A DNA stretch of 62,641 nucleotides, filler included, from Sphacelaria rigidula (GCA_964200075.2; 7 parts of 7 records of this genome joined end to end with filler, not necessarily neighbours in it); one strand, 5' to 3'. Shown: positions 8,865 through 56,149, counted from the first letter of the whole stretch. The notes: generated by a model not told the origin, from the letters alone. Made by a program: numbers and translations.

Positions 8865-8964
8865 NNNNNNNNNNNNNNNNNNNNNNNNNNNNNNNNNNNN
8901 NNNNNNNNTTAATTAATTAANNNNNNNNNNNNNNNNNNNNNNNNNNNNNNNNNNNNNNNNNNNN
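8865..8964. other. Artificial contig linker (N44-TTAATTAATTAA-N44)
   Basis: Identical 100-bp linkers also at 17828-17927, 26791-26890, 35754-35853, 44717-44816 and 53680-53779. The 12-mer has stop codons in all six frames. Confidence 0.98.
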
Positions 8965-10549: not shown

Positions 10550-13515
10550 TTACCTCGGCTCGTCGTCGCTACTGTCGTCCGAAACTTCCCGCCGCACCCG
10601 CTTCTTCCTGCTGCCGCTGCGAGCCACGATTCGTTTCTTCTTCCCCCGTTTTTCTGTCCTACTCCCCTCGCTCTCGCTTGGGCTGTGCTCTTCATCGCCC
10701 TCCTCCTCCTCATCTTCCGAGCTACCGCCCACGCTACTACCAACACCAGCACTCTCCCCCCAATCGTCACTGGGCGCACGACTCTTGCTTCCCCCGCCCC
10801 TTCTCGCTCCCGCTTTCGCTTTTTTCTTTTTCGCCGATCCACCACCCCGCCTTTTTTCTCTGGCATCGCCGTCTACACTGCTTCCCCCTGCCGACCCTCG
10901 GCTCCCGCCGCCCCGTCGCCCCCTACCGCTTTCATCTCCCGTCCCCACTGAATCCGCAATAGACGCAGAGTCGGAGTCTCTCCCAGCCGAGCTCCTGGAA
11001 CCACTGCCTCCTCCGCTTCCTTTACGCGATTTCCCCCGTGCGTTGTTGGATCTAGCTGAGGTCGCCGGGCCTGCCTGTAACATATCCGGTGGTCGGCGAG
11101 AGGTGCGAGCCCCCGCTACTACGCTATCGAAGCCTGGATCTGCTGTCACGAAACCTGGCCTCCGAGCTTCCTCGATCACTTCGCTCGCGTACGTCCTCAG
11201 TTCCTGTTTGCACGTATGTTTGATTCAAGTACTCGTTGCATTGTGGAGGATACATGTCACCAATGGGTAAGATGAGACGCGTGCACCTTGGTAGGTATGC
11301 CACATAGAACGGCGACGAGTCTCCCTTTGCAGCCACGCGTCTACGAGAAGGACCCAACCCCGTATTTGATAATGGGCACGCTCGTCATGTCGGTGACAAC
11401 ACACGACAGCTTGTGCGTACATTGCACCCGCGTTCTGAACTTACCCGGCACGTGTGTGCACGCGTGTGCACGCGGAAGACCAGACTCGCCCGAACGAAAC
11501 AAGGCTAGATATGGGCGATCAGAGCAGGCAAAGGACTACCATGGAATGGTCGCCTAGTCAAGAATTGCTGCGAAATAGCAAGACAAGTGACGGACGCGGA
11601 AATCAAATACCTTGCTATAGTCGAAGTACGGATCGCCAGCGCCATTAAAGACCATAGCGTTGTTGCACATCACGAACAGGTCGCGGCTCATGTCGTCCAA
11701 CGACGCGAGAGCTCCCGATATGATGCGCTCTCGGATGAGTGACAGATCCATGGGCTTCTTTATCACCTGTCGTGAAGAACACAAAGACACAGGCCAATGG
11801 TTCACCATCGCGGGAGGGGCGAACAGCCGTTGTTTGCATCGACGTAACGCAGTAGCGGAGTACCGGGTCTGTTCGGTAGATCCGGCCGAGACGAGTTTGC
11901 ACCTTTCGCAATTGCCGGTCTACTCTTGTCAAACGAACGGGATGCCAAACTTGCTCTAGTCGCACGAACAGACCATCCACAGACAGACGGCCGGCCTTCA
12001 TAACTTGATTTGCCAGCTTCACCGCTACTCTCCTGGATGCGATCGTGAACCACACTTGCACCATCAAGAATATAACCATGATAGAAATGAAAGCAAAACA
12101 AGCTGTGCTGTAGAGAGAGAGAGCATTAGATGCTCACCTTCTCGTACCCCGGCGCATCCTTTGGATTGACAGGCTTCCTGAAGATTATCGCAAACTTGTG
12201 TTTGTTCACTCTTTCCCACACTTCCAAGGCAATCCTGCGGAAATGTTCCAAGTCCCTGTTGGGGACTGGGCGCTCCCCCGCCTTGTCCGATGACTCCTCT
12301 TCGTCTTCATCCGTCCCGCCGTCCCCCCCATCTCTTCTACTAGACCTCGGTCTCCTATCGCGTGATTTCTCCGCGCCTGCCCCCCCTTCGCTCCTCGGCC
12401 GCTTCCGCCCCACCCGCCCTCCTCCCGAATTTTTTCCCGCGCCTGTCTCCTCCTCTTGCCCGTTGACTCCAGCGGCGTCACCCGAAGATTTCCCGTCTCT
12501 CCTCAAAGCTGGAGAACCGGGCACTCCACTACCGACAACGATACCATCACCACCATCACCACTATCACCACCGATACTATTGCTATTGTTGTTGCCGTTG
12601 CTCCGACTGTCTCGGTCCCCTCGCTCGCTTTTCCTAGTGCCACCGTTCTCGTCACTCGCCTTGCTGGTTGGGTGGTGCTTCGAAGACGGCGGAGCTACCG
12701 TGTTAGGCGCAGCTGACCTATTCGCGTTGGCAGTCCCGCCTGGATGGATTGGTGGTCTGTCTCGCAAAGGGGAAGCATGTGTACGACGGTGGTGATTGTT
12801 CGTGGGCAGCGAGACTTCAGCTCCGGCCACGACTGCTTTTTCCGCGCCACCGAAATCGTCCCGGAGGCAATTTCTGGCTTTGGTGCTGGTAGGTGTGGAC
12901 GCAACCGCCGAACCGCCGTTGCGCTTCGACGAGTCGCGATTTGGTTTAACAGATTCCGACGGGGGTGTCGCCCCCACCGCTCTGCTCTCCTTCGTTCGAT
13001 GCGGTGTTCCTGTCCTCGATTCATCGCCAGTGCAACCGCGCTTTGGCCTCTCCCCTTTGCCCCCCTCAGTTGTCTTTTCTTTCTTCTTACTGTCCTCTCC
13101 CCCGCCGACCGGGACAACCAAAACGTCTTCCTCTTTTTGCCCGTCAACATCAACTACTACCTGCAACTCGACGTCGCCCTCCGCTTCACTACTATCCGTC
13201 CGCTTGTCCCGTCTATCCGCGGCAGCGCCTTTCGCTCCTTGTGCTGATGTTGCTGGTGGCGTGCCCTTCGAAACCGCGCCAAAATCGCTGGTGACAACCT
13301 CATCCGTCGACCCTGCATTGCTATGGCTGTCTTCGTCTTCCGCGCATTCCCCATCACTGTCACTAAGCGCAGGCGCCGGCGGTAGTAACAGCCCACCATC
13401 GATACCCTTCGCCAACACGGCATGCAGATCTGGATCTAAAGGATTCGCGACAACTTCCCGTAAGCGATGGTCGTGCTTTCCGGCTTTCAGCTCGTCTATC
13501 TCGGCCCGCAAGAGG
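10550..13515 (-). CDS. BRD8: BRD8-like bromodomain protein (NuA4/TIP60-type subunit), 5'-partial
   Basis: Exons 13515-12138, 11766-11611 and 11203-10554/10550, GT-AG and in phase. Spliced bromodomain: HKFAIIFRKPVNPKDAPGYEK|VIKKPMDLSLIRERIISGALASLDDMSRDLFVMCNNAMVFNGAGDPYFDYSK|ELRTYA. The N-terminal LLRAEIDELKAGKHDHRLREV resembles the BRD8 N-terminal helical segment. Upstream exons unresolved. Confidence 0.85.
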
Positions 13516-15950
13516 CTATTCTCGAAACCACAGGGCCATAATCCACACAACAGATTTGTACATGTGCGTGTTGTGTTTTGCAGGTTTTGTGTCGATGTGG
13601 ACGCGAGCAGTGTTTGCGTCACGGCACGCGAGGAAGGGGAAAACAACAGCACACGCGAAGAACGAGGGATAGCACAGAATGGCAAGGCGAAGAAAAAATA
13701 CGAGTAGTTGGATCCTTGAATATCTTATCTATCTCAAGTCACGAAGGGATCCAAAGGACGATCATGACCTGGCCTACAAGGGTTGGGAAAAGATCTTGCG
13801 ATGTACCTGATCCGTGTAATCGTCACGATCATGATTCCATCGGGGGGGTGGCGGGGGTGGCGGGCAGAACGCTTCGTGCAAATTCACTAGCTGGCTGCGA
13901 CTATGTTTGCGGATCTTTACGGCAGCAATAGTCGAACAAGAAATTCAAGTCACGAAACGCTCTCAGCGGCTCTCAGCGGCATATACCTGACTCAAACTGC
14001 TTGCTTGCAGCCAAAGGGTTACTACCCTTCGAGAACCAGAGCGGGTAATAGGGTATCTTGGTCATTTTTCGAGTGAAAATGGCAAAATAGTGTCGACTCA
14101 ACAGATCACCCAATCTGACCGTCAAGGGTGAGTTAGTCCTGGCGTCATGTACCCTGCAAGCAGGACATGAGACGAGTACAGCCGCACATGTTGCGCATTT
14201 TCCCCGAATCTTACACACCCTTGCAGGTGAGAGCAGGTTGGGTGTACAAACTAGATTGAGCGGTTCTCTTCGAGCGTCGCAACATATTCTCGTACTGCCT
14301 GTATCGCAGCGGACGGTGCAAGTTTGGTGGCCGCTACCGGATATCGGCAGCGATCGACGGTATCGATGGTCGGAGTACTGAACCGTCGTACGAGCGCATG
14401 TCGGCCTTACGCCTGGCGGTGAACACAGCACCATAGTCATGGCTGCGGGGGCGGAAAGAAAAACCGGGTTGGCTGCTGAAAGGGGCAAAAAAGACTGCAA
14501 GATCGAAAAACGGATCGCGTGCGCCGCCAGCTTCACGGCTCGGCGTGTACGCGATCTAATCGGCCAATGGAAGATACACAGCAACGGAAACAGCGAAACT
14601 GATGTAAGCCGTGTGGTTTTCGCCAACAAAAGCGGTATACTATTACACGCTCGTAGACTCCTTTGCATTTCTCGCCGACAAAAGTTTTGTGGAGAGCAGG
14701 GGAAATCAATATGTGTGTGTGTGTGCGGGTTTATGTGTCATCATCATCGCCTGCTCATGGCGGTGTACTGGTTGTCGGAGCTGCATTGTTTTCAAATGGA
14801 AAAAACCCCAGCGGTACAAACAGACCCGATAGACTTTGCTTGTGATCGACGGCGATTGACTGTACAACCGCCCGGTAAGGACACGGAGCCAACTCTCACC
14901 TGATGCACTCGTCGAATCTTGGCAATTTCGCTCCGATCTCCTCCATCATTCTGCCTCGAGAAGCTGTAGCGAGAAGCAAAAGAGGACGAGACACGAGCAA
15001 ACATACGAAGAGGACGGGTGAACGTACAGCAAGCACAAAATATGCTACCAGCAGCATTTTTGAAGCAGACGGAGCTGCTGTAGAAGACGCAAAAAATACC
15101 GAAAAATACCTGCAGAGATCTACCCGGTTTGTCGCTCCCTCACTTTATGTGAATGAAAAAGAGAAGAAAAAAAAGAAAAAAAGGGGGGGCCTCTCAACAG
15201 ATACGGGAGCACGACTCACTGAGAAAAACAGACGAATACTTCAGCGTGTGCTTTTGTGAGATGGGTTGCGTATGGCACATGTAGCATACCAACTATCCTC
15301 GAGTGGTGTTCACAATCCAAATAGCAGGAACATACCTACGCCATCCTCTCCCATTTCCACGTCCCAGCCCACTACGCATAAGCACGAACAGCTCGCCTGG
15401 ACGAACACAAGCCAAAACTTTGCCGAAACCCAGCACCCTTGCGCATCCGCTTTCGTCATGATTTATTTGACGTTTACCTAAATATGTTTTGATACAAGTT
15501 TGATACCAAAGTAGGCGAGTCGTACCCGTTGATCGTACTAAAACTCGATTCAACTCGCTGTGTCGTACGGTCTGCTAGTGAAAAGGATCACCTAGACCTC
15601 CGGCTGAGATCTTTCAGTAATACAAGAAATGGTACGTAAGAGCTAGGGCTGATCTCTTTGGTAATATACCGACTCAAATTAGATTAAACACAACAACATT
15701 TCGTGCTGATGAGAAGTATGGGTATGGGGTATGGGTCAGTTGACCAGTGTTCCTTTTGATAAAATTATAGGAGAGACGCACAAATGAACGAGAACACGAG
15801 AACAAATATTTGAATATCTGCGCAACATCTTGAAAATAGACATCATTCTCATTTCAACTGTTGTGGCGGCGGGACTCGAACGACCACATTCGCAGGAGAC
15901 GCCCCTTTTCCCCCTATTCTCTCCGTATCCACCGTAGTAGTACAGTGGTA

Positions 15951-17827: not shown

Positions 17828-18181
17828 NNNNNNNNNNNNNNNNNNNNNNNNNNNNNNNNNNNNNNNNNNNNTTAATTAATTAANNNNNNNNNNNNNNNNN
17901 NNNNNNNNNNNNNNNNNNNNNNNNNNNGTGAGCTGCATCCTGCTAAGATTGTTCGGCCCGAAGCCTACTGATTATCTTGCATATGAATGGCAGCTTACAA
18001 TGAGCTGCTTCATTTTCTCGTATCGCCACTTCCAGAGACCACCACGGGTACACTACCTCACGGCTGTCTCACCATTTGAACACTACGTAGTACGATCATC
18101 CCCTTTGCACGGAATCGAGGTTCTCCTACCCCGCACGATTTGATCTAGCTCGACTACAACCATGGTCACCGCAAAAGAACG

Positions 18182-18670
18182 CAAGGGCGCACCCCCGCCG
18201 GAACCTGGTTACCTAGCTTACGCAGTGTGTGGCGTGTTTATAGCGTCATCGCCAACCGATGCCAACCCTGTACGGGGGATGGTCCCGAGGAAGGAGAAAG
18301 GGCGAAAGTGTGTTGTACGAAGAAATAAAAATGTTTTGTGACCATGGCTGGGTGCGTATAGGATCACTTCATGTGGTGCGAGAAAACACGAACCGATCCA
18401 CGGTTCAGACCAATCATGGCCGGTTCGAATCACCAAATCCTCGAGTTTTCAGGCCTCATTGTTAGAAGAAAAAAAAAAGTCGACCGCTGGTCAATAAGGT
18501 CTCCACGCAGTTTTTGCGCCGTTCCACGTGCCTGGGTTGCGCGTTACTGGGTTGCGCGTTCCTGGGTTTCAACGCTGGAAACAAAGAATGAGGATTGATT
18601 CGTACGGTACGAATAAATGACACTAAAATGAAGTTATTTCCAGACGAATCATCACTTCGTCCGACCCTTG
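18182..18670 (+). mobile_element. About 490-bp dispersed non-autonomous element (family C), CAAGGG...CCCTTG ends
   Basis: Collinear homology with 27663-28144; a fragment lies at about 35860-35950 on the minus strand. Short TIR, no clear TSD. Confidence 0.65.
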
Positions 18671-22520: not shown

Positions 22521-23959
22521 TGACGTGATGGCTGAATCTGCCACAAAAGCCAGTAATATATATATACATGAATATATGCCGCCACAGTGGCAACTGCTCC
22601 CCTCCTTCGGGACGAGTCCGTGGTCTCAAGGATCAACCCATCTTCCCCGCGATACACACTTGCAACTTCGTTCCACGGATTGCATCAGCACTCCCCCACC
22701 GAGTGGACTATTTTCAAAAAAGCTATCCTGCTCCTGACTAATGCCGAGATAGCCCCCCCACAAAAAGGGCACCGGAGACCGTCCGACAAACCGGCTGCGA
22801 TCCCACTGTTGGGCTCGTTTGCAGCAAATCCGCCCACACAAGAGGCGTGCAGCAGTCCGAAATCAGCTATAACGCCCAAATGAGTCGCGTCGTGCAACAC
22901 GAAACTAGCTCTACCGGTATTCATGATCATCGCCTCCGTGGACTTTTTTTACCGGTTCGGGGGGGGGGACCATCTCGGCAGCAGTCTCCTCACGCCCTAC
23001 AGCTTTCAAAGACGGAAATCAGATGCATTCAGAGAAGAAAAAAAAAGCAAACGCATCCACCCGCTGGGAATCGAACCTGGCTTATTTCCGACAAGATCGG
23101 GAAGTTGCACATGAGAGCCAACATCAAGGGCGCGGCAGCTTTACATCGTAGATCGTCCTCCCTTTTTCCAAAAATAAAAATCACTCCCAACAACCTCAAC
23201 AACTCCCAAGCAACCAACAAATTAAATGAAAATTAGACTGGATCAATTGTTATGAATATAATTTTATTTTCTTATTGTCTTCCCATGGTCCGAAAACAAG
23301 ATATGAAAAAAAACATTCCACATGATATTGATCAGCTTCATCATCCATTGGGAAATAACCCGTTGACCCATGCTGCCCGAAAGTGTTGAAAAGCAGCGGG
23401 GACGGAAGGCGTCCTTGCTCGCGTCCCTAGAAGACGTGGGGAGACTCTGATAGCTCACCACCATCCAGTTTATCCTAGCTTGCATACCAATACGCCACAT
23501 ACCGATGGTTTAGATCATCAGTGGCCTGATTCGCGTCGTGCAGCACGAAACCAGCTCTAACGGCATTTATGATCATCGCCTCCGTGCACTTTTTTGGCCG
23601 ATTCGTGGGGGGGATACCTCGGCAGCAGTCGCCTACAGTATCGAATCTAGCCTATTGCCGTAGACAATACATTTGATATAGTATGAATATGTTGCCATCA
23701 TCCAGGGTGTAATAATGAGGGAGTTTGTGGCTAGTCCACTGACAGTATCTCCGGCTTTGCCCTGCCTGAGCTCGCTGACGATCAGCTGCATGAGTCGATC
23801 ACATGTGCCCATGCCAGACCTTATTGCTCGCCTATTTATGGACTTGCACCTGGTGGGGGTTCGCCGGAGTCTGCGGCACTCCAAAATTATTCGAAATACA
23901 AATAACCGTCACTCACGACTCGCAACTCAGACCGAAGCCTACACGTGTACTGTACTCAC

Positions 23960-25425
23960 TAGGGCTCCGGTGGCGTCAAAAAGTGGCGTCAAGAAGAATT
24001 GGTTGTGAAATGTCGATCCGTCCTCCTTATAGTTGAGGAGGCATAAACACGCCTCCTTCCTCTCCTTCACTGCTTCTCGGATTTTAGCGACATCGCCTGG
24101 ATCCGTCTTTTGATTGAAACCAGAAGCGCAGAATCGGCGGATTTGGGAGAGGAGAGGGGGAGGGGCAGCGAGCCGCGGCATGGGAACGCATGCGGAGAGG
24201 CAAGAGGGCGGACGGGGGCGGAGGATCGTCGTAAGAATCGCAGCAACAGAATGCCACCATGGTTGCACTGCAGGGATAAATTTCAAGATTCTAAGATTTT
24301 TTCATCAACCCTGCACGTACTTTCGACCGATACTTGACTGGGGGACAGGTTCGAAATAGAGTACACATGTTCTTGAAAAAGCATCCGGACATGTAACACT
24401 GATTCCGTGCAACATGTACAGTTTCGCTCGCAAAAAAGTGTCCGTGTCAAGCATCAGGGATGCGACAGATTCATTTCTTGAGAGTACGACCCACTCGCCC
24501 TACGGGGGGGGGGGGTACTCATTTGTTGCTTGCCTAAGTCTTTTGACCATTGACCACTCATTCGTCGCATGCCTCAGTCATTTGACCATTAATCACACAT
24601 CCCTTTCGAGACGGAGCACTGTTCCTACTCCTGATGAAGACACTTTCAATATCTGGGCGCTCGTTGTGGCTCCTCCATATATTACACACAGGGCGGAATT
24701 ATACAAAGAAACAGCTATGAAAAATGTAAATGCCTTCGGCGTCTCTGTCGGACGAACGCAGCACGAGCTGTTCACCGGAGCACGGTAGACCACCAACGGT
24801 TATAGCGATAGCAGCAACAGCAATGATTAACACGTTCGTAGTTTCTTCCGTCCTTGCGTTATCGTCCCAGCGGTCCAGAGTCGGTGTACGTGACCGAATC
24901 GACACAGGCACAATCATGTACCGAAGCACGTGCACAGACAGAATAAATACAGAGTGTGCACGCACCCCCCCAACCATCTTGAGGCCATTGAAATGCATCC
25001 TCGGCGTGACTGCTGTCACCGCTAAGATATATTGTGTCTTCCTACAAGACATCGAGGTGGTATTCTTCATCTGAGGCGGGCACCAACAGCAACCTAACAA
25101 GAGTCAAGTATAGCAACTATGTGGAAACGCCGGGCAAGTGCAAAAAACGAGAAAGCAAATAGCGTGTGCACCTATTTCACCGGCCCAAGAGGAAAAAAAT
25201 AAAGGTGCAAAAAGAAACAATGCGGGACAATCCACTGGACAACCCTGCGTTGCTGTAAACGACACCATTTTTTAGTGATCCAAAAGCGTTCAACCAAAAC
25301 CCTGTCGGAAACCCGGAGTGTACTTTCTGATAGCAAACGTAGCACCTGTGCGCCCTGTAGAAACCGGCAGCTGTCCACGGCCCGCGACGGAACACATAGC
25401 GAACCCGGCAAAAGCGAAGAGAGAT

Positions 25426-25463
<38 letters not shown>

Positions 25464-25961
25464 GCAGGCAGCTTGCGACAGTGAGAGAGGGAAAGTACTG
25501 CACTGCAAATTTGCTACTACGGCCCACGATCCTCACACGCTTCACAGTCAACGGGATGAGTGTTATTACACACTGGTGTGTCCTTTGAACCACCCCAACA
25601 TTCATAGATAACCACCGGACGAGCATTAATCCAGCAGGAGTCGAACGAAACGCCGCGAGCACAGGTCCAGCGCGCTGCTATTGAAACATCGTGCCCCATG
25701 CAATACTTTACTTTATGCAAATACTTGCTAACATAGCTTTCGGGAACAGAATTATCATGACTCCGTCAACAACGCCCTCTCCCGTGTGACGTGTGATTTG
25801 CATCCTGGTCCACTTCACCACTGGCGCACCTAACCCTTATCCTGTAAAAGGAGGCATGGTACACATGATCACTCTCACTTTCGCCCTTCCACTTTGTCTC
25901 TGGCGTAGCCCGTAAATGCACAGAAACCGTCGCTGCAGAAAATGATGGGGTTATCCTCCAA
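23960..25961 (-). CDS. LOV (PAS) flavin-binding blue-light sensor domain, aureochrome/helmchrome-like; partial gene
   Basis: Exons 25961-25879 (83 nt), 25370-25346 (25 nt) and 24106-23960 (147 nt), all AG/GT-bounded and in phase. Product: LEDNPIIFCSDGFCAFTGYARDKVEGRN|CRFLQGAQ|TDPGDVAKIREAVKERKEACLCLLNYKEDGSTFHNQFFLTPLFDATGAL. Confidence 0.92.
24515..24670 (-). mobile_element. 3' fragment of the poly(C)-associated LINE, inside a LOV-gene intron
   Basis: Reverse complement of ...tctcgaaaggga...aaatgagtac abutting a G12 run (24504-24515); has an internal duplication. Confidence 0.75.
25425..25459. repeat. (CAG)n microsatellite
   Basis: Directly visible; intronic. Confidence 0.95.
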
Positions 25962-26890
25962 CTGCGCGAAATTCAGTGAAACGCGGGGAGAGCGGGTGCA
26001 AACCATCGGGTAAACAAGCAGGGAAAGAATCGAAGCGAAAGATCCAAGGAAGCAAATTTCTAGGTTACGAGGTCTTGAATAACACCCGGCTGAACACGTT
26101 CTACTGTGTCTGAATAACTCGCAGCGTGGATTGGTCGAAATTCATCGAAGTGCCCTAACAAAAATTCCACTAGCCGGGCGCAGAGCGAACACCACGGATA
26201 TGGATGCACTCTCCTCCGTCTAGAACGCTCATGTCCATCACGATATCATAATCTCTCTCGGATTGATGTGGTTGTACCGTTAATAGTTTTCCCTGCGTCA
26301 GGTACAATGCCATCGTGGCGAAGCCGACAAGGGTACCTAATGTGAGACCTGACACCTCATCTTCGGATGCCGTTCCCGTTCTAGTATACCCCCTGCATTT
26401 AACAAGAGTACAATATTCATCGTTACATTCTCTCTACACACATTGACAGCCTTTTGTTTCCAATTGTTTTGGTTGATGTGAACGCATTTTTTGGAATTCC
26501 TTGTGTTGTTTTGAGGAGTGGATCCCGAACGTGCATATTAAACTGTGCAGCATATGGCGCGTACGAGAGGCGCAAAATAGTGCGAAAGATCTAGGAATCA
26601 CCCAAGCTTCTGCGCTTGTGGAGGTGGACATAACACGACCTAGCTCCCTCATCTTCGCTTTCACTGCCGCACCACGCCAGCAGCATTGACCTTCCCCCCC
26701 CCCCCCCCCCCCCCCACACCCCCACCCCCCCCCCCACCTCCCTCCTCTCCCCCCCGCTGAAAACAACCCCCCCCCCCCCCCCCCCCAGGANNNNNNNNNN
26801 NNNNNNNNNNNNNNNNNNNNNNNNNNNNNNNNNNTTAATTAATTAANNNNNNNNNNNNNNNNNNNNNNNNNNNNNNNNNNNNNNNNNNNN

Positions 26891-26950
26891 GTCTCGAAAG
26901 GGATGCGTGGTCAATGGTCAAATGACTAAGGCAAGCAACAAATGAGTACG
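26891..26950 (+). mobile_element. 3' end of the poly(C)-associated LINE at contig start
   Basis: gtctcgaaagggatgcgtggtcaatgg...aatgagtacg followed by C7. Confidence 0.8.
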
Positions 26951-27015
26951 CCCCCCCTTCGCCCCTGGTATTTGACACCCGACGTTACGCATGACTTGTG
27001 TGCAGGCTTGCACAG

Positions 27016-30000
27016 GCTGGTGGCGAAGGTGGTGTTGTACGAGGCAGACACGCTCACCCCCTGCACGCAGATGAACAAGCCCTGGGAGATGCGTGCGATT
27101 TCGGAGAAGAACTCCGAAGTCAGGGATGTCATGTCGAGGAAGGTGTGTGTCGATGTCTATGCGTGAGTGTGTTTGTTGATGTTTATGTCCCCGCTTCGGT
27201 CACGCGGGTGTGATGTGTGTATGTGTATCTGCACGCGCAAGCATTTGTGCCTTTTTCTCTGTATCCCGAGTTTTTCGTTCCTGCCCATTTGAAGATGACC
27301 TTTACCGGAAATAATTGTGACGTTGTTTTTTTTGTTGTTGTGTGCGTCGTTTGGGACAAAGGTTAACCCTGTGCTGAACGGAGCCCCTGCGTCCATCCTG
27401 CCTAACGAGTTCCTGGCCGGCTTCAACGCCGACAACAAGAATGAGTGGGTCACGGCTGTCATGCTTTCACACGTGTACGCTCTCAAGGTACGGCTGTCTC
27501 CCGGCATCCCCGCCCTCCCTCCTCTCTCTCCCCAATCGAACGGTCTTTCCCATATTTTCACGTGGATTGATTCACTCTGACCCTTTCACCACCTGGGAAA
27601 GTGCGTTCGCTTTGTTCAGTATCAATATCACTTGAGATATGACATAAGTTGGAGTCAAACAACAGGGGTCCATTTTCCGGCGCTCCAGGGGTTCGATACC
27701 GGCAATGATTAACATAATGTGGTCGACTTGGTAGCGACCGGGAATAGTGGCATCAGTGTGTAGCTCAAACCACCCGTGACGATAAGAAACTCCATGTCGA
27801 TGTTTCACGCAAACGAGGATTGTCTCTTCTGGCGGCGAGAGAGGAATCCCGTTCGTAACGCAAGATCGCGACGAGGCATCCTTCCATGGTTCGGACGAAT
27901 CATCGCCGGTTCGAATAACCAAATCCACGATCCCTCAGGCCTGATTCATCGAAAGGGAGAAAAAATGTCGACCACTGATCAAACAGATCTCCACGCAACG
28001 TTTGTGCCATTCCACGTACCTGGGCCGCGCGTACGTGGGTTGCAACGCTGAGAGCAAAGCGTAAGGATTGATTTGTACGGAACGAATCAACTCACACTAA
28101 AATCAAGTAATTTCCAGACAAATCGTTGATTCGTCCGACCCTTGCATCCTTCAAGAGGATTGAGGTGGAGTAACCGCGCGGACGATATGTGTATGTTGTT
28201 TTGTTTTGTATTTTTCGGCAGGGGGTGATGACGGCCATCGAAGCAGCGAACATCATCGTGCACCGCTACGGGCTGAAGAAATACCGCATCCTCATCTACG
28301 GCTCCACTACACACGATGTGGTGTACTGCAGACGTTGCCAGGACACTATCGACAGGCTAAAACTCAACGATAACTGCAAACTCATGGGCAAGGGGCGTCC
28401 GGCCGCGGTAAGCTAATGCCATCACTCCATCCTATACATACATATGCAAGTTGCGAATATTAATACCCTCTTGATGCCCCCCCCCCCCTCCCCGGCATAC
28501 CTAGTCGGGACAGGTCCATCGTGTAGGGGGCTCAATTCGTCTATGCCCCGATGTATGTGTCTTACTTGGAGCTTGCCTATCCAGCGTTGGACAACCGCTC
28601 ACTACCACAGCCCATCGACCTCGACCGACATCGTTTTACACCTCGTAGGACAAGAAGACATTTTTATCGTTGATATGAATCGCTTCGCTCGGAAAACACA
28701 TTTCGACGACAATGCCGGTTGCTTTCATCAGATCTTGAACCGAATAGTGGTCGTGGGCACCTTCTCCGCATCTTTGTTCTGTGTCTTGGATTGATTTTTG
28801 CATGGTGACATGATTTCAAACTTTGTTGTCGCGCACGGTCAAGTAAGCGATGGAGTGCACTTGTAGTACTCACGAAGCCTTCTTCATCGACGCGCAGCTT
28901 AGGGCTTTAGCCGTCCGACGACCCGGTCCTCTTTGTGCTGAGAGGCGAATTCAGGGCACAGAGGCGAATGAAACACGTTGTGTGTGCGGTGTATGTATCG
29001 GTTTTGGTAAATCTCCTTCCCTTCGGCGACGGCAGGTGTTGGCACAAGGAGACATGTTCCTCAACTCGTCGGTGAGCGAGGGCTTGCCGTTAGCTATCAT
29101 CGAAGCCAGCCGAGCAGGTCTGGTCGTGGTGGCCACTGACGTAGGAGGTGAGTGCATTGATCAGTAATCTCTGTTTCGTCGAGTGTGGAGCGCACGTTCG
29201 TGATGTCACCCGGAATAAACCAATTTCAGTCCCCTAGACAACATCCACGAACGGTCATTCCCCAGGATAAAGAGCTTTTGTTACATTGGGCGTGTTTTGT
29301 TTTGCGGTGTGTTTGTCTCCACAGTCATTGGAACGTTGGGAGTGCCTCGCGGCATGAAGCGACCATGGACTGTTGGTTGACGCTTTGATTGGTATGCGGT
29401 GTTCTCTCTTCTTCCTCTCTGTGTGTGGGTTTGTTCCGGGGTACGTTTCCCGTAATACCCTTGCTGCGTCTTCGTCTGTTTCGTTGGCGGTACTCGTGTT
29501 TTTTGTGTATGTGTGCTGTGCTTCACTCTCCAGGTACCCGAGACGTCGTAAGCGAGTACGGCGGCATTTGCATGCCTAACAGTCCCCTAGAGCTGGCCAA
29601 GACCGAGCTGGAGACCCTTGCAGCTTGTCAGAAGTGGTGCAAGATTGGCGGTTCCCCAGACTTGAAGTGGGCGGAAATCGACCTCTCGCCTAACCCTGCT
29701 GAGGTACTCCTGTTACTGTTTTTTCTCTCCTACTGAGGTACCTTGTTTGTTCGGGGCATGTCTACGTCCGTGTCTACATGTTTTTTGTTTTTGTTTTTGC
29801 CCTCGTGCGGGGAGTGGAGGGCGAGGATGCCGTTTACACCGAAAAATGACAGTAATTGGATTCACGCTGAGCCGGTTCGACGGCAGACCGTCAGGTCCGT
29901 TTACCCCGGAGGATATGTTTTCCTCGCGACTTCAAAAGTCCCGGACGCTCGGATTGTTTCAAGACAGGAAAACGTCCACTGTCACTCTTGTGTATCTTCA

Positions 30001-33000
30001 CGGAGAGAGTGTTGTGGTTTTGCGCTCTACGCAGTGTACGCTCTGCGGAGTGTGCCATACAAAGTCCCGTCTTCTTGTATCTACACACGATGTATTTTTG
30101 AGGGCGTTTTTGTGTTTAGGACGTGTTGGATGAAGGGCTGGACTATGAATGAAAACGGAATGTGGACGTGAATGAACTCATTGCGCTCATCCATCCTTTT
30201 TTTACAATTCGAAAAACCATTGCTGATCATGACTTTCTTGTTGTATCATCATTTCTACCGTGACACTTGACTGTATGATTGATTGGTCGGCTGATTGTGG
30301 AACATTCACTGATCCGCGACGATTCCAGCCTTGGCCACAACATACACGTATACCCGAAGAGGAATAAAATGAATCCCCAGTGTTTTACAATTTCTGGTAT
30401 AAGCCTTAATTTTGTTCATGATTTTTTTCATATAAATATATATGTGCGTCTGTGTATACATTTTCAGATCTTGGAGAAGGCTATCTTCAACCCCGACGTA
30501 ATCAACGCCCGCCACGATTGGGGCACCCGGTACCTCGAGTGGACCAGCAAGGCGTTCACTCTCGACAGGTGAGAGCGCAGCCCGTTGAGCAGGTAACCCA
30601 CACAACGAACACCTGAGTCTGGCGGTCATTATCGAAACAAGTGCCCGATACGATCCATTGGCACAACAAATTTGGACGACCGGATCAAATGGGTGAAGAA
30701 CTCTGGTGGTGAACGTTCTGCTCCTGTACGTGGGTCCTGCTGGCGCGTTTCCTTCGATCGACGACGAAGCGGTTGATGTGATTGAGCGGACAGGGTCCGG
30801 GCGTTTCGTCTATCGTTTGTGCTGCCCGCATACGAACATGCCCAATCATGGGAAACAATACTTATCGCAGGTACCGCGATGAGCTTGTGCGGGCGCTCTG
30901 GCACGGGGACCGACAGGCCCAGATGAACTGCGCTAGGCTCACCCTGGGATGGGGTCCGGACCCGGGGCAGAAGAACCTGGCGCTCGCGTACCTGAGATTG
31001 CGGCGCCTGCTGGACGTCGGTGATGGAAAGGAGCATACCGCTCTCAGTTACATCGCTCACTTCGGCGAGGTTCGATCGAGGTGAGAGCGTTGGGGTAAGA
31101 TTGGATTGGCCTGTTGCTCGCCTTGGATAGGATGGCGGGAACGACTGACTCGAATGTGATGCCGGTCGCCCATAGGGAGACAAAAAAACACACTCCTCAT
31201 AATATTGCCGAACCCCTTGACAACAATCCGTTCCGGCCGAGACACAAGCTGTTTCCGCTGCATATGTGATCCCGGCCTCCTACACCCCTCTCCGTTGAGG
31301 TGGATTTTGCAATTTTTCAGCAACCTAGGAAAGGGACTTCGGTTCCTGAGCGTACCCCATATGTTGCTTGAAGCGTTGCTCGGAGTTTCACGTTTGTAGT
31401 ACTTGCCTATACATCAGTCCCATACCCTGTGTTGATCCATCGGGCTAATCGCAAGGGTACTTCCCCTTCGTGTTCAAGCTGTCGCCCCAGCCCCCCCCCC
31501 GTCCCCTAATGTCTACCTGCCTTCTCATCACTCGCTCACGTACATCCAGGATCCAGGACGAGATGAGGAGTCGCACACCGCTCCAGATGTCCACTGACCC
31601 CGATCAGCTGGCCCTCATGGCTGCATTCGAGAACGTTACCTCGGATCATCCACTCCTTCAGTGGCTTCATGGGGGCAAGGTCCGTTTATTTCGCCTTCTT
31701 GAGTTGGTTGTCAGTTGTCGGTTACCGTCATTGTACTTCAGGTAGTGTAGCTACAATACAAAGTGGAGGAACGGGGGGAGGGAGTGTGGTAGACAGTGTC
31801 ACTCAGCTAAATATCCCTGACTCGCGGTGCGCTGTAGCAAGCTGATATTCCGTCCCAGAAACGCATCACTGGACCTATACGTACTGGTGTATAATCGTAA
31901 CTCACGTCTGTGCGGTAACGGATGGTAAGTCTCGTCGTCGATACAATTAATCCAGTATGATGGTAGGATGTACTCCTCCCCGAGTCGTTCTCCATGAGTA
32001 AACCATGGGCCCCGACTGCCCCACAGGGAGCGTGGGACGAGGAAGACCGCCAAGGATCCGACGCAGCGAGTTCCACGTCATCCGGAACCGGGATGGTGGA
32101 GCATCTCGAGAGCCAGCAGGCGGACGAATGGGGCAAGCCCACATCTGAGCCGCCTCTGCCTGGCTCCGACAAGGTGAAGGCATTGGTGCACCAGTCCTAC
32201 TGCTGGTGATTCCTTTCATCATTCGGGGAATCAGAAGCCAGAGGTCGTCCTTGAATCGACCACCGACATATGCGAAAAATAGTGTGCTGGTAAAATAGGG
32301 CACGTATCGGGCTAGGGGATTGAGGGCCCAGGAAACCACGCGGTCATGTTCTGAGAAGGAGTGGTTCTCGAACATGGGGAAGATATTCCTTGTCAGTAGT
32401 AACGTAGCGTCGGGGTTACCAGCGTTGAAGATCAGCCGGTGTGTTTTGGACCGAAAGTACCGCTGGCGCCCGCGAGTCTCTCCACGATGTTGTATTATTC
32501 GTTGCAACACTTGTCGGTGTGTGTCCATGAGGCAAATTTGTGTTACTCGCTAGATGTTCTTATCGACATTTTTGTCCTACTATAGATATAAATCTCCCCA
32601 ACCCCGCGCAATATTATCTAGCCAAACGACGATAACCCAGGGATCCCTCATTTCATCCTCTAACATATCTCCCACAACCCCTGCATGTTGCACCCTTGTA
32701 CGAACCCCCAAAACCAACACAACACGCTGACAGATGTTGTCTCCCCCCGAGACTTCAGCACCTGGAACTCACGCTGCAGCGTCCCGCGGTGGCGACCCAC
32801 GATACGCCAGCAATAGCTCTGCGAGCTCCAGCGAATCAAGCTCCTCTGCGCAATCGGTGGTACGCTTCGACACCCCTGACGATGGCGCTCCACCGCTTAT
32901 TGATCTCTCCGCCGATCATCCCACCACACCCCCTGGGGCGAAGAAAGGGTTGAGTCTCGCCCAGAGGGTGGTCATGGGAAAGTCGCCGTCTTTGCACGCT

Positions 33001-35622
33001 CGCAAAAGGTGAAACAACTACCCATGCGTACGATAGAGCGGATCATCCGCCAGTCCAAGCAACGACAGTTTTAGTGTGCACTGAGCGGGATGCTCCGTCT
33101 TGGTACATATCAAATACATTGCTACTAACGAGAGGAATTCCCCGCCAGTACACTCACAACTGGAGGTGAACATGATATACGTATGCCACATCCTTCATAT
33201 ATCAAATCCTTCGCGTTTTTCGTGTGCACTGAACAGGACGCTATTCTCCAGTACATGGTAAATTGCTGTAATTACTGTTGACTGATTGATGCACAATTCC
33301 TACTGTGCCGTACACACGTGTGTGGGAATGATAACGCCGACGGCATGGCATGGGCACGTGTGCATGCACGTGAAGATGTAAGCGGATCGTCGTAGTTCGC
33401 CTAAAGCAGGCGCTTTTGTGATTCGTCATGATACGTTTCTCTCGTTTCTCTAAAAGTTGGCGAAATGTTGCATCGGTAGCAGCAGTTCGATCCATTTTTG
33501 TGCTTTTCACTTAACCGAGATAAACCAGCATCACGAGCTATCCGTCTCCGACGAAGTGTTGTATGGCGTGAAAGGTGTGGTTTGTGCGCCGTTTTCCCCC
33601 CAGATTTACCATAGCTTGCCTCCGAATCGTTTTGTGTGTCTCGGCTGTACTAGAACGTCAGGAAAAAAGGGCGAGACGGGAGATGCAGAGAAGTGGCGCC
33701 GCAGTGAGTCTTACGTGAGCTCCGTGGACTCCGACAAGTCAGCAGATGATCCGGGACAAGGTGCCGTGGCGGGTAGGGCTGGTGCAGGCACAGCGGTTGG
33801 TACCACCAATCGTGACGATCATAGCCAACATATGGACGGTGATATCGCGAGCGATATGAGCAGTCCCATGGGTTCGGAGTGGTTGTCAGAAGGCACGAGG
33901 ATGGTGGATGAGGTGAATCGTCAGGGAGCGGCGGGGCAGGAGGCTAAGCTGGACTTCGCGCCGTCGGCGGACGGCCTGGAAGCCGGGAGGGATGTTGAGA
34001 CAGAGTTCATGATGTCTCCGGCCTCTCGGGCCCAACGTGCCGGCATCGCTCCGCTGGTCAATCTACCAGGTGCGACCATTAAATTTCACGACATGTTTGC
34101 GCTGTGCATGTGTTCATGATGTACCGCGTGGTACCAAGATACTTTGGAGAGCACCCCCCCCCCCCCCCCTTCCCCCACCCCCCAGGAGCCCCCTCCCGCC
34201 ACCTCCGCCCACCCGACCACGCCGTCCNNNNNNNNNNTGTTTTCTTTTTGTTCCCCTGGGTTCTAAGCTGTTTTGGGGGGCCCCCCCCCCCCCCCCTCTT
34301 CCCCCTCCCCCCCCCCCCCCCCCCCGCTTTCGTTTCTCAGCCTAATTCAACCGTTCGTTATGCGTTAATTTTTCGGCGATAGAGTTCGATTCGTGGCCCC
34401 GAGCACACATGGCAAGACGCACGCGCACAGAAAAAGAGTGCTAGAAACATATCGATTGAGACGTACTTGGTTTGCTGCAATACAAGCGTTGCTATTTGCC
34501 ACTATATTGGTTGTTATCGCCTAATCGAATACCAGGATTGAACTATTTGTTTGTTTTTTCTGCGGCGATTGACGACGCACGGGCGCCATGACGGACCACG
34601 GTAGTGTATTGGTTTGCAGTTCATAAACAGCAGCAGTTCACCGTGGTGTGCGCCGGATGCATACGTATTGTACCCGTGTGACACGCCCCAAGCGTAGGGT
34701 CTGTATAGTGTGGAACATTATCCTAAATGTAGAAGTTTCCCTGTCCAGCCAATTCGTGTATTTGTCATTGGGCATTCTCCAGAGGTCCGATTTTGATCCT
34801 CGAGCATGAGACAACGTGTTGCCCAAAACGCTGCTCGATGTTACGTGTTGAGGTATTCGCACATGTATCAACATGATGCACTCTTACTCACTGCGCTGAA
34901 GATTGTTTCTCCGAGGGGCATCCCCTTGCCTGTGGTCTGCAACAAGTCCGCTTGCCCGTCCCGCCCCTCTTTCCACAGCCGCCGTCCACACCGATACAGT
35001 AGACATGCAGATCGGCTACGAACGAGAGTATCCCTTCCTCGGAGGATTCACCCTGTTACATACTTTCGGTTTCTCAGTAGAGAGCTTGTTTCTCCGCCTC
35101 TCAAATTCGCTTTCCCTCCGGAGAACAGATGGATACAGCGAAAGTGCCACTATGGACTCCCCTGCGGCGAGCACGACGACATTCGACACTCGAGAAGAGG
35201 AAGAAGGATCGAGAACTTCATGGTCGGGACGGAACACTGCAGTGGCGGGCCAGAGTAGGACCAGAAACAACTCGAACATCCCACTCACAGCCTTCAGCAG
35301 CAACAGCGACGCTTCGGTCTCGAGCTCCCTAGTGGAGAGTCAACCGTGGGTATCGCCCCGCATTCAGGGAAGCGACAAGAACCGTGAGCGGCAGAGCGCA
35401 AGCGCAAGAACAGCGGCTTTGGACGTGGAATCGACCGCTGGAAAGGCTGCGATGGCGTCGCACGGGATCAAGATACGGGAGGCTAGTGTGACGTCTTCGA
35501 AAGGCGAGTTCGGGGGGTCTGGTGACGATAGCGGCGATCGGGGTGTTGAGATCAAGAGGCAAGGGTTTGATCAGTGGATGAAGGCCATCTTGGATATGGC
35601 TTGCTGTGTTCCGCTTCGGTAA
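27016..35622 (+). CDS. GT4 (GT-B fold) glycosyltransferase, Gtb3/PelF-like, with long low-complexity C-terminal extension; 5'-partial
   Basis: Twelve phase-consistent GT-AG exons: 27016-27142, 27362-27487, 28222-28407, 29036-29147, 29534-29703, 30468-30568, 30871-31080, 31550-31679, 31967-32173, 32734-33008, 33654-34069, 35129-35622 (last may continue via a donor near 35619). Motifs: ADTLTPCT, KVNPVLNG, VMLSHVYALK, YRILIYG, FLNSSVSEGLPLAIIEA (EX7E), VVATDVGG. Confidence 0.9.
27663..28144 (+). mobile_element. Family C element inside a GT4-gene intron
   Basis: Homologous to 18182-18670, with the same ...cgtccgacccttg end. Confidence 0.65.
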
Positions 35623-36776
35623 TTTTGAATGCGCGAAGATTGAAGTTGAGGATCGGGGGAATGGGAAGGGGGGGGGGGGGGGGGGGGGGGTGTTTTTTTT
35701 TGTTTGCGTTTTTTTTAGGGGATTGCGCCCCACCCCCCCCCCCGCTAGCAACGNNNNNNNNNNNNNNNNNNNNNNNNNNNNNNNNNNNNNNNNNNNNTTA
35801 ATTAATTAANNNNNNNNNNNNNNNNNNNNNNNNNNNNNNNNNNNNNNNNNNNNATCCCTAGGACCAGCGGTCAACTTTTTTCTCCCTTTCGGGCAATCAG
35901 GCCGAAGAAATCGTGGATTTGGTGATTCTTGGTCGCGATGATTCGTCCTAACCGTGAAAATGTTATGACACGTATCGTCTGGCACATAACTCCAAGGACT
36001 CATCGACGGCAAGTAGAACAAAGACGACCCCATCCGCTCCCCGCCCACCCATAGACCTCCTCGCGACGACCTCGGTTCTCCTTGCTTTGCTATGACTCTC
36101 GACGACATCTCCCCAACGACACAGCTATCGATGTCGTGAGCACCTGTCGCTACCACCGAAGTCGAGTTTGGACAACAGACGTGAGGGGTTGCCACACCAA
36201 CAGTAAACGACATCAATACCGTACCAAAACGAAACTACAGGCATGGCCCGAATGCCCATGACCACCCTCACCTCGCCGAATGCACAACTATCCAAGAATG
36301 GCGGAAAAATCACAGTCGCCGGCATGGCTCCAAGGTCCACGGTGTCCCCAAATTCACACCCACTGTGTTCCCCATTCGAACCCGCGACATAAACAGCAAT
36401 CAGCTAATGTGAGATAATCAATCAATCAATCGATCGATTAACATCACATACTTGCTCCATCACGTCTTCGTAATCTCGGAATCATGAAGTGGAAGACTTA
36501 TGCCCCCCCACCCCCGTCGGAATCAAAATAAAAAAATGCACTGCGGTGTTTTCATTTCCGTATAAAATTTCTTGGAGTTCTGATAAAAAAAACGTGGGAC
36601 GGGGTCTCCCACTCACAAATCTTCCCCCCCCCCCACCCCACTTTCAGGTACATACCTCTTTTGTTGCCAACCACCCTAAATCCACATGCATAACATTAAA
36701 CATAAGATAATAGCAATTTTTCGTGCGTCAACTGAGTCGTATACTCCGCCTAGGCTATTTTTCTGTACACTTACAA

Positions 36777-44716: not shown

Positions 44717-44816
44717 NNNNNNNNNNNNNNNNNNNNNNNNNNNNNNNNNNNNNNNNNNNNTTAATTAATTAANNNNNNNNNNNNNNNNNNNNNNNNNNNN
44801 NNNNNNNNNNNNNNNN

Positions 44817-53679: not shown

Positions 53680-56149
53680 NNNNNNNNNNNNNNNNNNNNN
53701 NNNNNNNNNNNNNNNNNNNNNNNTTAATTAATTAANNNNNNNNNNNNNNNNNNNNNNNNNNNNNNNNNNNNNNNNNNNNTTTCATTTATTTTGTTCAAAA
53801 GGCTCGGGATTCGCAACCGGTTGCGATCATGTGCCCCTAGCCCAGACGTTTCTGCACGGCAGCGAAAGCATGATCATGAGCAGTCTAACAGAAAAACCGC
53901 CGTAATTCGTTGTGCAGCATGTTTTGAGCAACCCCTGCGTCTAAGCGCTACGGAACACGTAACAAAGCATGCTGAAAACATGCTGAAAACATGCTTCTTT
54001 GGAATAGTCATCGAATTTTAGAGCGCTTTTTGTTGAGTATCTGAGAGAGGCTTCATACCGTTGCGCCGGCGACGACCGCCGTCAGCGAAACGATCCAATG
54101 CGGGAACAGATGCCAGCGATCTTTGAGACGCAGCACCATTCAGCAGTCTGCTGAGATATACCATCACCAGCATCACTACAGTACAGTCGAAAAATGGATG
54201 CGCCACAATAAAGCTGCAGACACACACAACGGGGGTAAGAGTTAGTCCCACGCTTGGGGTTGTTTCGCCAGTAGTGCCCATGCGAGGCCCTTCATCCAGT
54301 CTGAACCAGCTATCACGGCTTGTATGGCCACCTCCGCTGTGGTTGTATTGAGAACCGGTTTCGCGGTGAGACTGTCGAGTAATACTGTTACGGATCGCGG
54401 CGTGGCGTGGTGGATAAGGGTAGTACGATGATGGGCCGTCCATTCAAAACGACTTACGCGCCAGGAGGGCTGATTGCGGGAACTGGCTAGTACCGCAGTC
54501 AGGGGTGAGGCGCTATGTAAATCCGTCGAGAGACGGAATACATAAACACGCCTCTTTACATCTGGTTGGATCCGGTTCTTTCCGAGGACCGACCCAATCG
54601 GGTGCACCCTGGTGTCCACTCCATTTTCGGAAGTGCGAAGTCTCGACACCACCAATGAGAGAAAGAGAAAAGAAATCGGCCTTAATCTGTGACCAAGCAT
54701 ATCGTGACGTTCGTCCTGTGTCATTCTACGTTGGATTTACCCACATGCTGTGAGCTTACGATTGTTTCAAGTGTAACGGTGAGACAATAAGATGTTTGAT
54801 TCCAGCAGCGAGTAGATGCTAGAAGGTTGACATGATAGTAAAATCGAACTGTGCCAAATGGAATGGTGAAATGTGTAACCATATATAATAGTAAAAGTAA
54901 GTCATATTCGCATGAGCTAGCGAAACCTCGTTACCTGCATGACCGAAATCCTGTTGTTGTTTCGCTCTAGTACTCGACTTGTACAGTAGAGACATGCATG
55001 TGGACGACCACTATGGCCAACACTATTCCGTTTGTATCATGGCGCTTCAGCAAGCGGGACTATTGTCTCGGCTGTTGTCATCTGCGACGTGTTGACCACT
55101 CCTCTTGCGATTTCCGAAATGCTCTGTTTCAACGAAGCATCAGCCACCATAATGCTTCGGTCCCCATAAATGAAAAATCTTTGTTCACCTCAAACGATAA
55201 CCCCGCATGTAATGACGAATAAACAAACTGTGCCTTATTTGACTATTTGACAGTATAACGCGTATTTGAAGTACAATTCCCCGCTCTGAAACATGTTTGA
55301 CATCGTCTCCCAACGCGTCTGACGAATACTCGTGGACACATAAAAGATTTTTGTGCGCATGTGACCCATATCTTTCGGTTGACGACGTCCCCCATCAGTT
55401 TGAAATGATGTTTCCACACGAAGGCAAGACACCCGTTCTGCTCTACTACGCTACAGTGGTGAATAGTAGCTATGGCTGTGATGCGAGTTAGCTCATCATG
55501 CAATGCCTGCAGACCGTGCCTTGAAAGGGAACCTCAACCTAGTCTGCTGACCTGACGGACATCGCATGTTATGTACACCCAATATATACTGTATACATTT
55601 CAGGGTACAATGCGATTATTTGAATCCTATTTCGCCGCCCCTCGGGAAATAACCTTGAGGCAAGTTTGAAATCATGCGTTTTTGAGATTTGAAGATGGTG
55701 ATGAATCAACAGCCAACCTCGCTCTTTGTCATAACAATCTATAACCTGTGGAGGGAAAGGAAATGATGGATCAGGCTGATAACATCGCGCTACCTGCTTG
55801 GATTGATTTCACGGCTTACTGGATACCGTGTGTATAAGGCTTGCTGCATGCTGCATCTGGGTGAGAGCCAATAATGTGATGAACCGTAAATGCTGTCAAA
55901 CGCTGGACTGTTTGTTCATGTAGCCCGATATAACAATTAACTCATTTATCTTTTTCGCCGTTGAAGAGCATTGGACGCAGGTGCACTTTTTGTCATTTTT
56001 TCACTTGATTTTAGAGTACATTTTTTCGCGCCCATTTCATTCTCCCTGGACTGAAGCTTTGAGAAGCCAGTATTGGCTCTCACTTGATTTTAGAGTACAG
56101 CGGAGTACAGCGAAGTACAGCGAAACGGGGCCGTCGTTCTGTCAACCTC

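Follow-up and report, generated by a model that had tools for sequence, protein, structure and literature searches.

The stretch of DNA analysed here (the window; 62,641 nucleotides, filler included) comes from the brown alga Sphacelaria rigidula (GCA_964200075.2) and carries, at the start of its fourth segment (26891-35753), the 3′ part of an intron-rich gene for a glycosyltransferase (GT) of CAZy family GT4. On balance, this gene is best explained as an expressed brown-algal giant synthase of the Gtb3 type, whose product would be a polymer of N-acetylgalactosamine (GalNAc) and galactose (Gal). Gtb3 of Aspergillus fumigatus (Gt4c, Afu3g07860) and its Pezizomycotina orthologues, such as MrGtb of Metarhizium, form the putative synthase of galactosaminogalactan (GAG). 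The sequence comparisons make membership in this giant family, which combines DUF3492 with GT4, very probable. A sequence-only reading of the window had proposed a GT4 gene resembling Gtb3 and the bacterial PelF at 27016..31080; this interval covers the first seven exons, but the first of them starts at 27006 instead and four more exons extend the gene to at least 34069.

Assignment to the Gtb3-type family

When the exon translations were scanned singly against Pfam, one of the seven matched, exon D (PF13692 Glyco_trans_1_4, E 1e-07; PF00534 Glycos_transf_1, E 5.7e-06; at or above the cutoffs), and the other six, which are too short for the scan, gave no Pfam family. The C-terminal Rossmann domain and the E-x7-E motif that characterize CAZy GT4/Glycos_transf_1 were both found. 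The GT4 motif series named in the sequence-only reading is complete in the spliced product: ADTLTPCT, RKVNPVLNG, VMLSHV, AIEAANIIV, YRILIYG, VVATDVG, PN..LAK, DRY and ALWHG are present, as is the E-x7-E motif (FLNSSVSEGLPLA..EA, with SEGLPLAIIE as the E-x7-E element). RKVNPVLNG is formed only across the joint of exons A and B and DRY only across that of exons F and G. DUF3492 scored above its cutoff (23.3 bits) in the brown-algal orthologues P0003 (38.2 bits) and P0040 (35.6 bits), just upstream of Glycos_transf_1; only its last ~40 residues lie in the window, in exon A.

A search among proteins of similar length gave 37 matches among 7999 scored, in which proteins named PelF appeared at E ~1e-10 and ~25% identity. 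Among proteins of 1520-4340 aa, 118 of 5078 candidates matched, with E values of 1e-28 to 1e-62 outside brown algae and a 2062-aa Pylaiella protein at 88%. Nearly all of these matches were 2.4-4.3 k residues long and contained Glycos_transf_1, and most contained DUF3492. The large majority belonged to Pezizomycotina, including Aspergillus clavatus (2881 aa), A. unguis, A. ellipticus and Metarhizium rileyi (2881 aa); 17 entries were from chytrid-grade fungi, three were ichthyosporean by their source names, and several were metagenome proteins. The EukProt tags Ihof and CFRG among the matches presumably denote Ichthyophonus and Creolimax.

The GT domain had been predicted to lie nearer to Gtb3-type proteins than to generic GT4 enzymes, and this was borne out. 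The giants were matched at E 1e-43 to 1e-62, compared with ~1e-10 for named PelF proteins. Identities were 45.6% to P0043, a marine protist giant (226 columns), 39.5% to Rhizophlyctis, 39.0% to Sphaeroforma, 35.9% to M. rileyi and 31.9% to A. clavatus, versus 22.6-25.6% to two proteins named PelF. For the comparison with Gtb3 the A. clavatus and M. rileyi proteins were used, not A. fumigatus Gtb3 itself. In the alignment, three features mark the window and all giants but not the bacterial rows: MLSH(V) replaces GR(V), ~45 residues are inserted ahead of the last helix, and DRY.RE..W is present. With the Gtb3-type fungal proteins in particular, the window shares MLSHV, NSSxSEGLPLA, this insert and DRYLREHE..W, at a module identity of 32-36%; the PelF rows (23-26% identity) have GR instead of the eukaryotic SH and lack the insert. 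A search of the PDB by sequence gave three weak matches confined to the GT4 core (best 8qoy_A, E 1.3e-07) and no solved close relative, and in the ESM Atlas (clusters of at least 50 members) only bacterial DUF3492/PelF clusters were found, with TM values of 0.62-0.65, a result that has no bearing on eukaryotic relatives.

As a separate observation, the position directly before a conserved Lys is occupied by SH or SN in all eukaryotic giants and by GR or AR in the bacterial DUF3492/PelF rows. An Arg near the MLSHV position contacts the phosphates of the nucleotide sugar in other GT4 enzymes.

Exon structure and expression

Exons were read from stop-to-stop frames and the DNA using AG/GT borders, and were spliced by coordinates with a script. 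This resulted in at least 11 GT-AG exons on the plus strand, from 27006 to at least 34069, with an uninterrupted frame of at least 669 codons (Table 1). By tblastn with brown-algal homologues, these exons were recovered at 64-100% identity.

Table 1. Exons of the synthase gene and associated features, with the GT..AG joint that connects each exon to the next.
Feature	Position	Strand	Joint to next exon	Content and evidence
Exon A	27006..27142	+	27142/27362	End of the DUF3492 half (LHRLVAKV..ADTLTPCT..SRK); first two bases finish a codon of an upstream exon outside the window
Exon B	27362..27487	+	27487/28222	VNPVLNG..VMLSHVYALK; joints in X6, X7, X8
Exon C	28222..28407	+	28407/29036	GVMTAIEAANIIV..YRILIYG..GKGRPAA; Glycos_transf_1 domain begins here; contig joints
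Exon D	29036..29147	+	29147/29534	FLNSSVSEGLPLAIIEA..VVATDVG, EX7E motif; contig joints
Exon E	29534..29703	+	29703/30468	TRDVVSEYGGICMPNSPLELAK; part of the insert confined to eukaryotic giants; contig joints
Exon F	30468..30568	+	30568/30871	ILEKAIFNPDVINARHDWGTRYLEWTSKAFTLD; tblastn and contig joints
Exon G	30871..31080	+	31080/31550	RYRDELVRALWHG...EVRS; donor site exactly at 31080
Exon H	31550..31679	+	31679/32027	Conserved ...PLLQWLHGGK; tblastn and contig joints
Exon I	32027..32173	+	32173/32734	Low-complexity tail, acidic and Ser-rich; joints in X6, X7, X8, frame open
Exon J	32734..33008	+	33008/33654	Ser-rich tail; contig joints
Exon K	33654..34069	+		Frame open at end, GT next; X7 transcript contig runs ~710 nt further
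Dispersed host repeat, intron 2	27883..28144			Copies in two other segments, at 18397-18670 (75%) and 35862-35959 (79%, reverse)
Artificial linker N44-TTAATTAATTAA-N44	26791..26890			Closes the preceding segment

Nine of the 11 sequencing runs contain part of the stretch; none is on record as RNA, and four (X1, X6, X7 and X8) were examined. In X6, X7 and X8, which come from one study, one long contig per run (6560, 11360 and 11227 nt, respectively) matches exons only and skips all ten introns, so that the proposed intron-rich structure could be verified at every joint. The DNA-like run X1, which has the same organism label, holds an unspliced contig over 28098-34171 with even depth and 0 of the ten joints. 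The match of the RNA-type contigs begins at 27006 and is preceded by letters of the upstream exon, which marks the start of exon A. Transcript contigs extend ~8640 nt upstream of 27006 and ~710 nt past 34069, so the mRNA is no shorter than 11 kb. The intron-skipping contigs together with the upstream transcript show expression and giant size of the gene, of which the window contains the 3′ third or less.

The sequence-only reading had envisaged further 5′ exons. By tblastn with P0003 and P0040 none could be found anywhere in the window, where the artificial segment border at 26891 cuts the gene, but ~8.6 kb of upstream transcript is present in the contigs. At the other end, the frame of exon K is open and followed by GT; therefore, further 3′ exons are located downstream of 34069. 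The C-terminal tails of P0171 and P0040 matched nothing past exon H by tblastn, and the last exons and the stop codon could not be mapped in this way because the tails are not conserved.

The tail encoded by the window (32027-34069, +) is long, rich in Ser, Gly and Asp, and unconserved even among brown algae. Two Pylaiella models of 2062 and 2649 aa are ~80% identical over their shared part, and their tails differ greatly.

Protein architecture

A hydropathy script identified nine hydrophobic spans in two clusters in the Pylaiella orthologue P0040, in agreement with the large N-terminal membrane region predicted in the sequence-only reading. Six giants from fungi, ichthyosporeans and one other source have 10-12 spans, and P0116 (A. 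clavatus), P0063 (M. rileyi), P0042 and P0046 have 11-12 in two clusters; the bacterial rows P0033 (named PelF) and P0024 have one each. The N-terminal region of P0040 gave weak collinear matches to the membrane regions of giants (P0043, iE 5.6e-11; P0051, 4e-06), values that compositional bias of membrane segments may inflate. To the membrane region of four giants Pfam assigned no family at E up to 5, neither PelG nor any other transporter.

A layout of the ~300 kDa type, with a multi-spanning region N-terminal of the GT module, is thus predicted for the brown-algal protein from the orthologue and the transcript and not from the window DNA. The protein would begin with a long N-terminal region, followed by two transmembrane-helix clusters, a linker in the cytosol, the DUF3492 and GT4 module and, last, a low-complexity tail; the window would encode the end of DUF3492, the entire C-terminal Rossmann half and the tail. 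The membrane spans and the 8.6 kb of upstream transcript fit the description of Gtb3, in the accessible text of PMC9860509, as a putative transmembrane glycosyltransferase of ~300 kDa that is needed for GAG.

The Gtb3-type fungal proteins likewise carry a C-terminal EX7E GT4 module on a giant with two clusters of membrane spans and have DUF3492 ahead of Glycos_transf_1, although Pfam DUF3492 was found in the M. rileyi and not in the A. clavatus protein. The identity of MrGtb and Gtb3 is given as 28% in the accessible text of PMC8224951. P0063 and P0116 are also 28% identical, over 2709 residues, and their length of 2881 aa each is consistent with ~300 kDa. Unlike the fungal proteins, those of brown algae form a deep clade of their own and have a long low-complexity C-terminal tail. 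With PelF (NF038011), the cytosolic GT4 of the bacterial Pel system, they share DUF3492 followed by Glycos_transf_1. In contrast to PelF, which is soluble, ~500 aa long and has one hydrophobic stretch, the giants have 9-12 spans and the orthologues are 2062-2649 aa or longer; the stand-alone ~500-aa protein accompanied by PelD/E/G that defines PelF is not what the brown-algal orthologues present. The marine protist giants P0043 and P0004 (GT4-PH-RhoGEF) belong to the same eukaryotic clade and show the highest identity outside brown algae and the strongest N-terminal match, but they carry PH and RhoGEF domains, of which neither the brown-algal models nor the window tail showed any.

Phylogeny and distribution

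A quick tree was calculated from 63 rows and 583 columns and a careful tree from 46 rows and 583 columns, after 17 long, partial or redundant rows had been dropped; both agree in topology. In the careful tree, the eukaryotic giants form one clade against the bacterial DUF3492 proteins (100/100). The window falls inside the brown-algal clade (100/100), which is not nested in any fungal group, and the remaining eukaryotes are grouped together with moderate support (81/88). Ascomycetes (100/100) and chytrids with ichthyosporeans (100/99) form separate clades. The root rests on long bacterial branches, and the program warned that long branches meet there. By the homology searches, the alignment and the trees, the protein is far nearer to the giants than to PelF or other GT4s; a grouping with unrelated GT4 subfamilies would have spoken against the sequence-only reading. 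Its suggestion of an ancient horizontal transfer finds no support in the tree, which does not contradict it either: brown algae branch there as a deep clade of their own, and neither the direction nor a donor of such a transfer can be stated from the sequences.

Gtb3-type giants of 2.4-3.8 k residues with DUF3492 and GT4 were observed in the 17 chytrid-grade entries (P0042-P0060, P0072-P0078, P0153) and in the three ichthyosporean entries P0046, P0047 and P0049, which are sister to the chytrids (100/99); both groups lie apart from the ascomycetes. In the accessible text of PMC4817252 (2016), the range of the GAG cluster is given as Pezizomycotina and Trichosporon asahii.

Candidate product and partner enzymes

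As a GT4, the brown-algal synthase would be predicted to retain the anomeric configuration, and therefore it should not make the beta-linked or inverted products required for mannuronan or for alpha-L-fucans from GDP-beta-L-fucose. PelF is tied to Pel, a polymer of GalNAc and galactosamine (GalN). Gtb3 is tied to GAG, a polymer of GalNAc and Gal, in the accessible parts of PMC9860509, PMC8224951 and PMC4817252. Hydrolase family GH114 is among the most populated glycoside hydrolase families of brown algae, with ~5 genes per genome, and is described as 'markedly amplified' in the portions available of PMC11468063 and 10.1101/2024.02.19.579948. The former attributes alpha-1,4-galactosaminidase activity to GH114 from elsewhere and, in its accessible text, proposes no algal substrate; the available part of its supplementary table has 78 rows for GH114 and 19 for CE4 (~one per genome). 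Because the only studied relatives, Gtb3 and PelF, are tied to such polymers and GH114 is amplified, a GalNAc/Gal product can be proposed for the brown-algal synthase by analogy, at somewhat less than an even chance.

In the mechanism proposed here, the cytosolic GT4 module would polymerize a UDP-sugar to an alpha-linked chain, the likeliest being alpha-1,4-GalNAc, alone or together with Gal, and the membrane region of the enzyme itself would export it. The chain would afterwards be trimmed and de-N-acetylated by GH114 hydrolases of brown algae, perhaps together with a CE4 deacetylase.

Alternative explanations

Since the product is 76-81% identical to brown-algal proteins, has ten spliced introns and contains in intron 2 a repeat common to other segments, the gene is a spliced nuclear gene of a brown alga and not a bacterial or fungal contamination. 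Contaminant DNA of fungal, chytrid, protist or bacterial origin in the assembly had to be considered, as chytrids and other microeukaryotes inhabit brown algae, the synthase family is rich in chytrids, and one run containing the stretch is labelled as algae metagenome. This is nevertheless extremely improbable. Exon C alone is 77% and 76% identical to proteins of Laminaria digitata and Scytosiphon promiscuus, respectively (two matches among five candidates), exon D reaches 100% identity with Scytosiphon across 38 residues, and the whole spliced product is 80.8% identical to Scytosiphon and 76.0% to Pylaiella littoralis (391 columns). Fragments of Ectocarpus sp. 12 and Hapterophycus fall in the same 90% cluster, together with the 2649-aa Pylaiella model, and a Discosporangium fragment spans the upstream part of the protein. 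The five rows of the brown-algal clade in the quick tree are four named species and the window. In the DNA-like run, depth is even across the locus (~65-80), and the intron 2 repeat reaches ~78,000 in X1 versus a baseline of ~70 (~1000x). The statement of the sequence-only reading that host repeats in the introns exclude a bacterial contaminant thus holds, and a fungal origin of the contig, which would have contradicted that reading, is opposed by the identities and the separate brown-algal clade. A decaying, non-functional copy is also very unlikely: the public brown-algal models are all partial or of variable length (309, 433, 580, 868, 2062 and 2649 aa), but the frame is open over 11 exons (669 codons) with canonical splice sites throughout, spliced contigs occur in three runs, and the catalytic motifs and the sequence of exon D are preserved. 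A generic GT4 with a chance or family-wide resemblance to Gtb3 and PelF could account for the six of seven single exons that had no Pfam match and for the scores of other GT4 models, which are just under that of PelF (47.9 vs 55.7 bits). It is contradicted by the present results, namely the E values to giants compared with named PelF, DUF3492 above cutoff in the orthologues, the insert and SH-for-GR change common to the giants, the 100/100 eukaryotic clade and the collinear similarity in the N-terminal membrane region, and is accordingly judged highly improbable.

The alternative of most consequence concerns the product. The same family and architecture could make an alpha-glucan, an alpha-mannan, a GlcNAc-containing chain or a glycoconjugate, with the GH114 expansion unrelated, and this has an appreciable, though minority, chance of being correct. 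The long branch of the brown-algal clade is separate from every other member, the only lineages with genetic studies are 32-36% identical to it, the brown-algal table has almost no GH135 or CE18, and the donor specificity of Gtb3 is itself unmeasured according to the accessible text of PMC9860509. On the other side, the nearest characterized relatives on either side, Gtb3 and PelF, are tied to GalNAc/GalN polymers, and the highly populated GH114 family has no proposed substrate in brown algae (PMC11468063, accessible text).

Several points weigh against a Gtb3-type synthase with a GalNAc/Gal product. Two-thirds or more of the gene at its 5′ end lie outside the window, and the RNA status of X6-X8 was guessed by a tool, although their intron-skipping contigs argue for RNA. 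The PelF model NF038011 was the best NCBIfam match of the brown-algal orthologues, but their scores (55.7 bits for P0003, 47.4 bits for P0002) did not reach its curated cutoff of 100 bits. The Aspergillus and Metarhizium proteins are putative Gtb3 orthologues by size, family and the 28% match and not by accession; the supplement of PMC8224951 (Table S1) gives locus tags only, to which the accessions of P0063 and P0116 could not be linked. With 1.9 changes per column, the branch of the brown algae is long, and donor and acceptor specificity of a GT4 cannot be read from 32-46% identity. No partner domain was found in the window: only three of 148 open reading frames (ORFs) of at least 100 aa had a Pfam family (bromodomain, PAS_9 and the synthase GT), in a scan of all ORFs of this length among 496 of at least 60 aa, from which short exons would escape. 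Unlike at the Gtb3 locus, no adjacent uge3, sph3, ega3 or agd3 is present in the window segment. The available part of the PMC11468063 table has only five rows for GH135 (four Discosporangium, one Tribonema) and one for CE18, and two of the four fungal partner enzymes are therefore essentially missing. Literature searches, as far as the sources were accessible, gave no biochemical or compositional evidence of GalN/GalNAc polymers in brown algae. The brown-algal pathway is thus at best Pel-like and partial and not the five-gene fungal set uge3-sph3-ega3-agd3-gtb3; synthase, GH114 and CE4 could conceivably make up a Pel-like set.

Organization of the window

The window consists of seven equal segments of ~8863 bases, joined by linkers of the form N44-TTAATTAATTAA-N44. 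The six linkers have a spacing of 8963 bases (8865-8964, 17828-17927, 26791-26890, 35754-35853, 44717-44816 and 53680-53779), and an additional gap of 10 N is located at 34228-34237. As the segments are artificially chained, genes are cut at segment ends and neighbourhood across linkers is meaningless.

The segment before that of the synthase gene ends in a long poly-C/CCCCA-type low-complexity tract (26644-26790), which reads as poly-Pro in one frame; past the linker, a similar C-rich stretch at 26946-26957 attracts very high depth and numerous loose ends in every run. The segment with the poly-C tract also has a PAS_9 match below cutoff (E 2.5e-05) in the region 23942-24301 (-) and 25875-26141 (-), and a LOV-like stretch (NPIIFCSDGFCAFTGY) in a frame near this match. 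A LOV or aureochrome-type photoreceptor gene may have exons in these two intervals. At 11557-11919 (-) and 12129-13724 (-), a bromodomain exon (E 1.2e-11) adjoins a 532-aa open frame without a Pfam family.

Implications for brown-algal polysaccharides

Brown-algal walls are described as composed of alginate, fucans and cellulose. The gene is already public as an unnamed GT4, its orthologues being unnamed proteins of Phaeoexplorer species, and the novelty lies in the assignment and the link rather than in the sequence. The orthologues are presumably counted among the brown-algal GT4s, of which up to 16 genes per genome are given in the accessible text of PMC11468063; there, GT4 was found only as a family count or label in the CAZyme annotation, with no link to Gtb3, PelF or GH114. 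In the text accessible to the searches, no paper connecting brown algae with Gtb3, PelF or GAG was found, the DUF3492 literature found was bacterial only, and one paper on the polymer treats GAG under Dikarya only.

GH114, for which cleavage of alpha-1,4-galactosamine chains is the only reported activity, gains a candidate synthase for its puzzling substrate, and the synthase hints at a wall or adhesive polymer undescribed in brown algae. Tentatively, and with the odds rather against it, brown algae could make a Pel/GAG-like alpha-1,4-GalNAc/GalN exopolysaccharide, partly cationic, with this giant synthase, and this polymer would be the missing substrate of GH114. In the anionic matrix of alginate and fucans it could act as a glue or cross-linker, or it could take part in the adhesion of spores and zygotes. 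The synthase would also be an old eukaryotic machine, patchily kept in stramenopiles, ichthyosporeans, chytrids, ascomycetes and other protists, and not an invention of filamentous ascomycetes. With the brown-algal gene, the known range of GAG/Pel-type synthases is widened well past Pezizomycotina and Trichosporon, which bears on the origin of the biofilm polymer machinery.

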